From a virus (taxonomy: Duplodnaviria; Heunggongvirae; Uroviricota; Caudoviricetes), in the IMG/VR virus record IMGVR_UViG_2541047936_000001: 26,422 nt of DNA. One strand, 5' to 3'. The stretch's first letter is position 1. Every line of letters starts with the position of its first letter. The position numbers were made by a program, and so were the translations under genes. This document shows positions 6,744 to 6,801 of the stretch, in pieces. The notes beneath the pieces were generated by a model. It saw only the letters and a list, made by a program, of their open reading frames with translations. It was not told the origin of the DNA and did no database searches.

Positions 6744-6801
6744 AAAAAGGGCGGCAGAGCAGTCACGGAGTAAAACTGATACCGCCAAACGTCACCAGAA
6801 A
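6744..6801 (-). ncRNA. dicF: DicF small RNA (about 53 nt plus terminator U-tract)
   Basis: Minus-strand sequence TTTCTGGTGACGTTTGGCGGTATCAGTTTTACTCCGTGACTGCTCTGCCGCCCTTTTT between ydfC and dicB. Confidence 0.65.

Follow-up and report, generated by a model that had tools for sequence, protein, structure and literature searches.

A dicF gene in a Qin-like lambdoid prophage, and an STnc100-like leader element between it and dicB

The DicF small RNA is 53 nt long, its 5′ end being made by RNase E from a polycistronic dicBF transcript and its 3′ end either by Rho-independent termination or by RNase III, with the latter route giving a 72-nt form (PMC5069750). The terminator responsible for the 3′ end of the 53-nt species is one with a U-tract (PMC5069750, citing Faubladier 1990). 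In its processing, an RNase III product of about 190 nt precedes the 53-nt RNase E product, as seen from the dependence on rne-ts and rnc, and the sole transcription start is the promoter dicBp upstream of ydfA, which is repressed by DicA (PMC10448788). Rem, an antirepressor, relieves this repression, as do spontaneous switching and stress, and DicF builds up in stationary phase (PMC10448788). As regards its targets, DicF binds Hfq and represses the translation of ftsZ by direct pairing, as established with compensatory mutants in K-12, and compensatory mutants likewise established that its 3′ part pairs with pykA and its 5′ end with xylR (PMC5069750). Moreover, DicF pairs with the manXYZ mRNA, with manX as the target (PMC10448788), and an unusual Hfq-dependent mechanism of DicF is covered in a further article (PMC5861419).

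[quoted passage not shown] With the Qin copy of DicF (b1574), the window shares the same 53 nt, flanks, operon, terminator hairpin, and anti-ftsZ loop. In contrast to Qin, which is truncated by IS2 after ydfE, the window's prophage is more complete and lies at tRNA-Ser(CGA)/mtfA, and it has an intact 823-aa exonuclease, replication genes, Q, three tRNAs, lysis genes, and a tail fibre. Its insertion site, intact exonuclease, and late genes, all of which differ from those of K-12 Qin, led us to reject an identification of the window with that prophage. Among complete genomes, the nearest matches cover 93-99% of the 25 kb and are about 99% identical to it. The left end of the window, where the prophage is joined to the chromosome, contains the following features.

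1..837, minus strand: mtfA (Peptidase_M90), beside tRNA-Ser(CGA)
892..981, plus strand: tRNA-Ser(CGA), which marks the prophage attachment site, a site different from the K-12 Qin locus
1034..1864, minus strand: tyrosine-integrase ORF, adjoined by an IS3-family insertion sequence
1932..3145, plus strand: IS3-family element with orfA/orfB and an ALIL frameshift pseudoknot at 2213..2329 (121.5 bits)

Since related genomes have no insertion sequence at this place, the integrase is probably interrupted, and the prophage is probably unable to excise. Further to the right, the order of genes is dicC and, divergent from it, dicA, ydfA, ydfB, ydfC, dicF, dicB, ydfD, and the exonuclease, which is that of the classical dicBF operon.

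8334..8564, plus strand: dicC, Cro-like and divergent (NCBIfam NF007282, 159.5 bits)
7843..8250, minus strand: dicA, the repressor gene (NCBIfam NF007257, 235.6 bits)
7677..7842, minus strand: dicA-ydfA spacer with the operon promoter dicBp and the DicA operators (by identity to MG1655, PMC10448788)
7676..7521, minus strand: ydfA, with ydfB the first genes of the operon (ORF and matching RefSeq annotation)
7519..7391, minus strand: ydfB (ORF and matching RefSeq annotation)
7361..7143, minus strand: ydfC, 72 aa (ORF; annotated as ydfC in matches of 97.5-99.9% identity)
6802..7142, minus strand: untranslated ydfC-dicF leader of the polycistronic precursor (7 of 341 columns differ from MG1655)
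6386..6574, minus strand: dicB, cell-division inhibitor, 62 aa (NCBIfam NF049927, 129.1 bits against a cutoff of 100)
6198..6398, minus strand: ydfD, overlapping the end of dicB (ORF; annotated as ydfD/DUF1482 in matching genomes)
6105..3634, minus strand: exonuclease, intact, 823 aa (ORF)

The family matches of DicB, DicA, and DicC all exceed the curated cutoffs and follow one another in the canonical order, and RefSeq annotation at loci of 97.5-99.9% identity reads ydfC/dicB/ydfD. As NCBIfam holds no model for YdfA, YdfB, YdfC, or YdfD, the identity of these four rests on the RefSeq annotation of near-identical DNA. The regulatory stretch from dicC through dicA to ydfA is 99% identical to MG1655. 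Within the dicA-ydfA spacer, our own reading gives candidate dicBp hexamers TTGACC (7782..7777) and TAATCT (7759..7754) at a spacing of 17 nt, and the scan of the region raised no flag on them.

An earlier note on this DNA had placed DicF between ydfC and dicB, as a minus-strand sequence of about 53 nt that ends in a hairpin and a U-tract and occupies 6744..6801. Our analysis bears this out in each part, with the range resolving into the mature 53-nt RNA, now refined to 6801..6749, and the U-tract that follows it.

6749..6801, minus strand: mature DicF sRNA, 53 nt (full-length Rfam RF00039 match and 53/53 identity to MG1655 dicF, b1574)
6787..6801, minus strand: DicF 5′ arm, nt 1-15, unpaired in the predicted fold (by identity, the xylR seed of PMC5069750)
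6750..6786, minus strand: DicF terminator hairpin, nt 16-52 (from folding, in agreement with the Rfam consensus)
6766..6777, minus strand: anti-ftsZ segment AGUUUUACUCCG, DicF nt 25-36, mostly hairpin loop (from complementarity)
6744..6748, minus strand: U5 tract of the DicF Rho-independent terminator (read directly as UUUUU at 6748..6744)

Read 5′ to 3′ on the minus strand from 6801 to 6749, the DicF sequence is UUUCUGGUGACGUUUGGCGGUAUCAGUUUUACUCCGUGACUGCUCUGCCGCCC. When the whole window was scanned against Rfam 15, the DicF model (RF00039) matched 6800..6749 of the minus strand over model positions 1-52 of 52, with 76.7 bits and an E value of 1.5e-15. The earlier note had proposed just such a search as its check, with the lack of a match counting against DicF, and the score obtained compares with a gathering score of 48 bits. 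In fact, every consensus pair of RF00039 is canonical in the window's copy, and the curated MG1655 ncRNA dicF (b1574, 53 nt) aligns to 6801..6749 at 53/53 identity. Over the ydfC-dicB spacer as a whole, 9 of 568 columns differ from MG1655, and the two sequences are identical throughout 6879..6609, a block that reaches 78 nt upstream and 140 nt downstream of DicF. The hairpin, predicted at -15.9 kcal/mol, consists of 7 bp, a bulge, 5 bp, and a 9-nt loop, and its MFE and centroid structures coincide. Taken alone, the stability of this hairpin is only mildly unusual (z = -1.8, with 10 of 200 shuffles equally stable), and its significance therefore rests on homology. A simple terminator scan over 6100..8400 made no call on the DicF hairpin, which is due to the 9-nt loop and bulges exceeding the limits of the scan and not to the hairpin being absent. 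Judged by identity, the minus strand at 6801..6749 is almost certainly the canonical dicF gene of a Qin-like lambdoid prophage, to which the mechanism described in the literature can be transferred. DicF at this location is an already known RNA in its canonical place.

By this transfer, ydfABC-dicF-dicB-ydfD would be transcribed from dicBp upon derepression of DicA, whether by Rem, spontaneous switching, stress, or stationary phase. RNase III would then cut in a long helix about 135 nt upstream of DicF to leave the intermediate of about 190 nt. Here, folding predicts a helix of about 25 bp in the ydfC-dicF leader that spans about 6935-6938, and the published RNase III site, given as position 813/814 relative to the transcription start or as 190 nt away from the terminator, would map to about the same 6935-6938. 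RNase E would subsequently make the DicF 5′ end at 6801, and the hairpin with its U5 tract is predicted to terminate transcription and thus yield the 53-nt RNA. Read-through transcripts would carry dicB, and in these RNase III cleavage about 19 nt past the terminated end would give the 72-nt form, the 3′ end of which would map to about 6730, where the closing helix of the downstream element described below begins.

With respect to the pairing with ftsZ, we noticed that AGUUUUACUCCG is complementary to positions -12..-1 of MG1655 ftsZ, CGGAGAGAAACU, a stretch that contains the Shine-Dalgarno sequence; the MG1655 ftsZ leader was used as the pairing partner, as the ftsZ of the source strain lies outside the window. 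The duplex energies beat those of shuffles only modestly, both for full-length DicF with ftsZ (59 of 1000 shuffles as good) and for the loop segment with ftsZ (96 of 2000), which is too weak for use as a stand-alone test of significance, and the functional claim therefore rests on the published compensatory genetics. Going by the identical K-12 RNA, Hfq-bound DicF would use its loop and 3′ half to pair with the ftsZ ribosome-binding site, so that FtsZ synthesis is blocked and filamentation follows. The same part of DicF would pair with pykA and manX and the 5′ arm with xylR, and DicF would work alongside the DicB protein encoded directly downstream.

A search with the 58 nt of DicF plus U-tract found them in 3969 of 5426 complete E. 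coli genomes, at up to 7 copies per genome, with a best match of at least 99% identity in 3055 records. This distribution agrees with published work in which dicF is commonly found on prophages, and in several prophage contexts (PMC5069750). The 58 nt are also present in cultured or induced phages, namely mEp460, Tritos, and the PPompW prophages. These active and Stx-associated lambdoid phages have the same ydfC-dicF-dicB order as the window and are 98-100% identical to it over 171 nt, with DicF of Tritos having a single substitution, C to G, in its final base. In the Tritos record, the homologous 53 nt carry the annotation ‘DicF antisense sRNA’, and, among the records examined, this one and the curated MG1655 record are the only ones with dicF annotated. 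The gene is unannotated in both pipeline-annotated RefSeq records whose tables were examined (NZ_CP017100.1 and NZ_CP022664.1), and the annotation beneath the exact-match 58-nt hits in E. coli is given as ‘none’. The missing annotation of dicF is a systematic gap for a well-known sRNA. While the DicF call itself matters only for annotation, flagging the gene restores a known regulator of cell division, of sugar metabolism, and, in EHEC, of virulence. The DicF copies of EHEC are also said to activate pchA under low oxygen, a finding reportedly made by Melson and Kendall in 2019. By its sequence, the window's prophage retains its dicBF module for toxicity and phage defence intact.

In Rac-type and POCJ13-type phages, the same early-left slot, upstream of kil/kilR, is taken by a GGCGG...CCGCC stem with a U-tract, after which come the same STnc100-like leader and a gene for a division inhibitor. 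However, the loops and 5′ arms of these kil-type hairpins differ from those of DicF and they lack the CUCC anti-Shine-Dalgarno motif, and the window's copy is not one of them. Against the Rfam DicF model, the Rac-type hairpins score 35-41 bits, which is below the gathering score of 48, and the slot hairpins of cS51a, POCJ13, and pPE4 gave no match up to an E value of 1. As a source of covariation for DicF, these last three were rejected, as Rfam finds no DicF in them and the alignment shows different hairpins in the slot. True DicF copies, for their part, are nearly invariant, which leaves no covariation to assess. Slot hairpins without the anti-ftsZ CUCC were located in kil-type and some dicB-type phages, and are listed here under our locus numbers.

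L011, 1445..1499: slot hairpin without CUCC
L016, 545..600: slot hairpin without CUCC
L013, 549..599: slot hairpin without CUCC
L004, about 1865..1915: further such hairpin
L005, about 1540..1590: further such hairpin
L006, about 1560..1610: further such hairpin

These hairpins could be paralogues of DicF that act on other targets, or simply terminators. The comparison points to termination as the original role of the slot hairpins and the one they have in common, and DicF looks like one variant of a recurrent module made up of a terminator-sRNA, a structured leader, and a division inhibitor.

Such hairpins with a U-tract, in the same slot yet with unrelated loops and no anti-ftsZ segment, are also what a purely cis-acting reading of the window's copy would draw upon, along with the terminator anatomy of the segment itself (a predicted hairpin followed by U5). 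The hairpin and U-tract would then serve only to terminate or attenuate transcription within the operon, so that less read-through reaches the toxic dicB, and would have no role in trans in this host. However, a cis role is compatible with a trans role and may be additional to it, even ancestral. Moreover, the copy is identical to an RNA whose pairing with ftsZ, xylR, and pykA was proven by compensatory mutagenesis (PMC5069750), and thousands of genomes show no variation in its loop and 5′ arm, a degree of conservation that termination alone would not call for. We consider it highly improbable that the segment acts in cis only.

There is a slim chance that dicF is a silent relic, intact but never effectively expressed in this prophage and hence with no physiological role. 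DicA represses the operon under standard conditions (PMC10448788), and the prophage shows signs of partial decay, its integrase gene containing an IS3-family element. On the other hand, all ORFs of the operon are intact, and identity to K-12 is 99% over the promoter, operators, dicA, and dicC; in K-12, DicF accumulates in stationary phase or upon derepression (PMC10448788). The relic reading would hold only insofar as expression is conditional. A protein-coding role for the segment has next to no probability. Two overlapping ORFs on the plus strand, 6168..6773 (201 aa) and 6685..6840 (51 aa), do exist mechanically, but they run antisense through dicB/ydfD and are unannotated in MG1655, NEB5-alpha, and FORC 064, and the segment is conserved in the manner of an RNA hairpin that fits a covariance model. 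Being antisense to annotated genes and never annotated in the RefSeq records examined, they were rejected as an explanation, which upholds the view of the earlier note that no ORF accounts for the segment. Our preferred reading is thus that of a canonical dicF gene, and it is with this gene as the upstream neighbour that the DNA before dicB is considered below.

Between DicF and dicB lies a second structured RNA, for which the late region of the window contains a counterpart.

6592..6737, minus strand: structured RNA element, STnc100-like, 146 nt, with an extended helix at 6575..6748 (from folding, covariation, and reciprocal model matches)
18371..18543, plus strand: bona fide STnc100 (RF02076, 100.8 bits), late region

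The 174 nt from DicF to dicB (6748..6575) fold at an MFE of -63.2 kcal/mol, with a z of -4.9 and 0 of 200 shuffles as stable. On this leader, the Rfam STnc100 model (RF02076) scores 34.6 bits (E 8.5e-6 in a search of 701 nt), below its gathering score of 47, and the leader is therefore classed as a structural relative and not as a member of the family. The bona fide STnc100 locus sits between the prophage tRNAs and a sialic-acid esterase ORF (18681..20531), and the prophage consequently carries the STnc100 fold twice, in the early-left operon and again in the late region. Copies of the leader element, at 69-99% identity, are found directly upstream of dicB, kil/kilR, and tciA/terB, and the element is also present in an unannotated Klebsiella phage record.

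POCJ13, pPE4, Rac-SA53, PhiR5_2, 683R6, 666R9, and phiSTEC1589: leader copies before kil or kilR
P7 and D6, P1-like phages: leader copies before tciA/terB

Across 12 phage or prophage copies, the leaders have a five-helix structure with 98% of cells paired, and 9 of the 34 pairs show compensatory double changes, a level that 0 of 500 shuffles reach and for which slid controls give 0-2. A covariance model built from the leaders alone matches the STnc100 locus at 18391..18518 with 49.6 bits and, under a rough calibration, an E value of about 2e-14. Since this leader-only model finds the STnc100 locus, the dicB/kil/tciA leader and STnc100 are structural relatives, and the leader and STnc100/PasD (RF02076) both fold into several helices and have the conserved motifs GGUGAAU and UCACCnGGAGGCACCnGGCACC. 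In the window's copy of the leader, the closing helix in its extended form is predicted to reach from the U-tract of DicF to the Shine-Dalgarno sequence of dicB, and the folding model suggests that the leader may be processed by RNase III and gate the translation of dicB. A 2026 survey of Pas sRNAs, which links PasD to STnc100, leaves DicF, dicB, and kil unmentioned, and a literature search for a dicB/kilR leader element or its kinship to STnc100 found none, though with incomplete coverage, which makes this weak evidence of novelty.

A bolder proposal, which we offer tentatively and regard as rather doubtful, is that the leader at 6737..6592 is an unrecognised, cis-acting third branch of STnc100/PasD. 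It would be processed by RNase III, occlude the Shine-Dalgarno sequence, and gate the translation or stability of dicB, kil/kilR, and tciA, and DicF and its divergent relatives would be the interchangeable terminator-sRNA ‘heads’ of one two-part module. If this were true, DicF would have evolved from an operon-internal terminator, and the STnc100/PasD sRNAs may derive from, or double as, leaders. The STnc100-like leader is the only part of the locus with research value, as it links a family of orphan prophage sRNAs to the 5′ regions of genes that encode division inhibitors in both lambdoid and P1-like phages, and it makes their function testable.

The remainder of the prophage, which also carries a sialate-esterase gene, a lysozyme, and a tail fibre, has further features of note.

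13880..14054, plus strand: sok antitoxin RNA (full-length match, 114 bits)
16445..17140: Q antiterminator gene
17351..17600, plus strand: three prophage tRNAs (CAT, Arg-TCG, Arg-TCT), just downstream of Q

The sok match indicates a type I toxin-antitoxin locus of the hok/sok type, and, in the near-identical FORC 064 prophage, hokD is annotated in the same region. The arrangement of Q and tRNAs is typical of Stx-type lambdoid phages, and stx genes were not noticed in the window. Outside E. coli, the record of Aeromonas phage AP1 (MT713136.1, 249906..250142) contains an E. coli-type dicF-dicB region at 97.5-97.7% identity, and that of Actinobacillus phage vB_Apl-pPE4 (PP818812.1) contains a whole E. 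coli-type dicA/kil/exonuclease block, which suggests that these two records are assembly chimeras or reflect contamination or a misassigned host.
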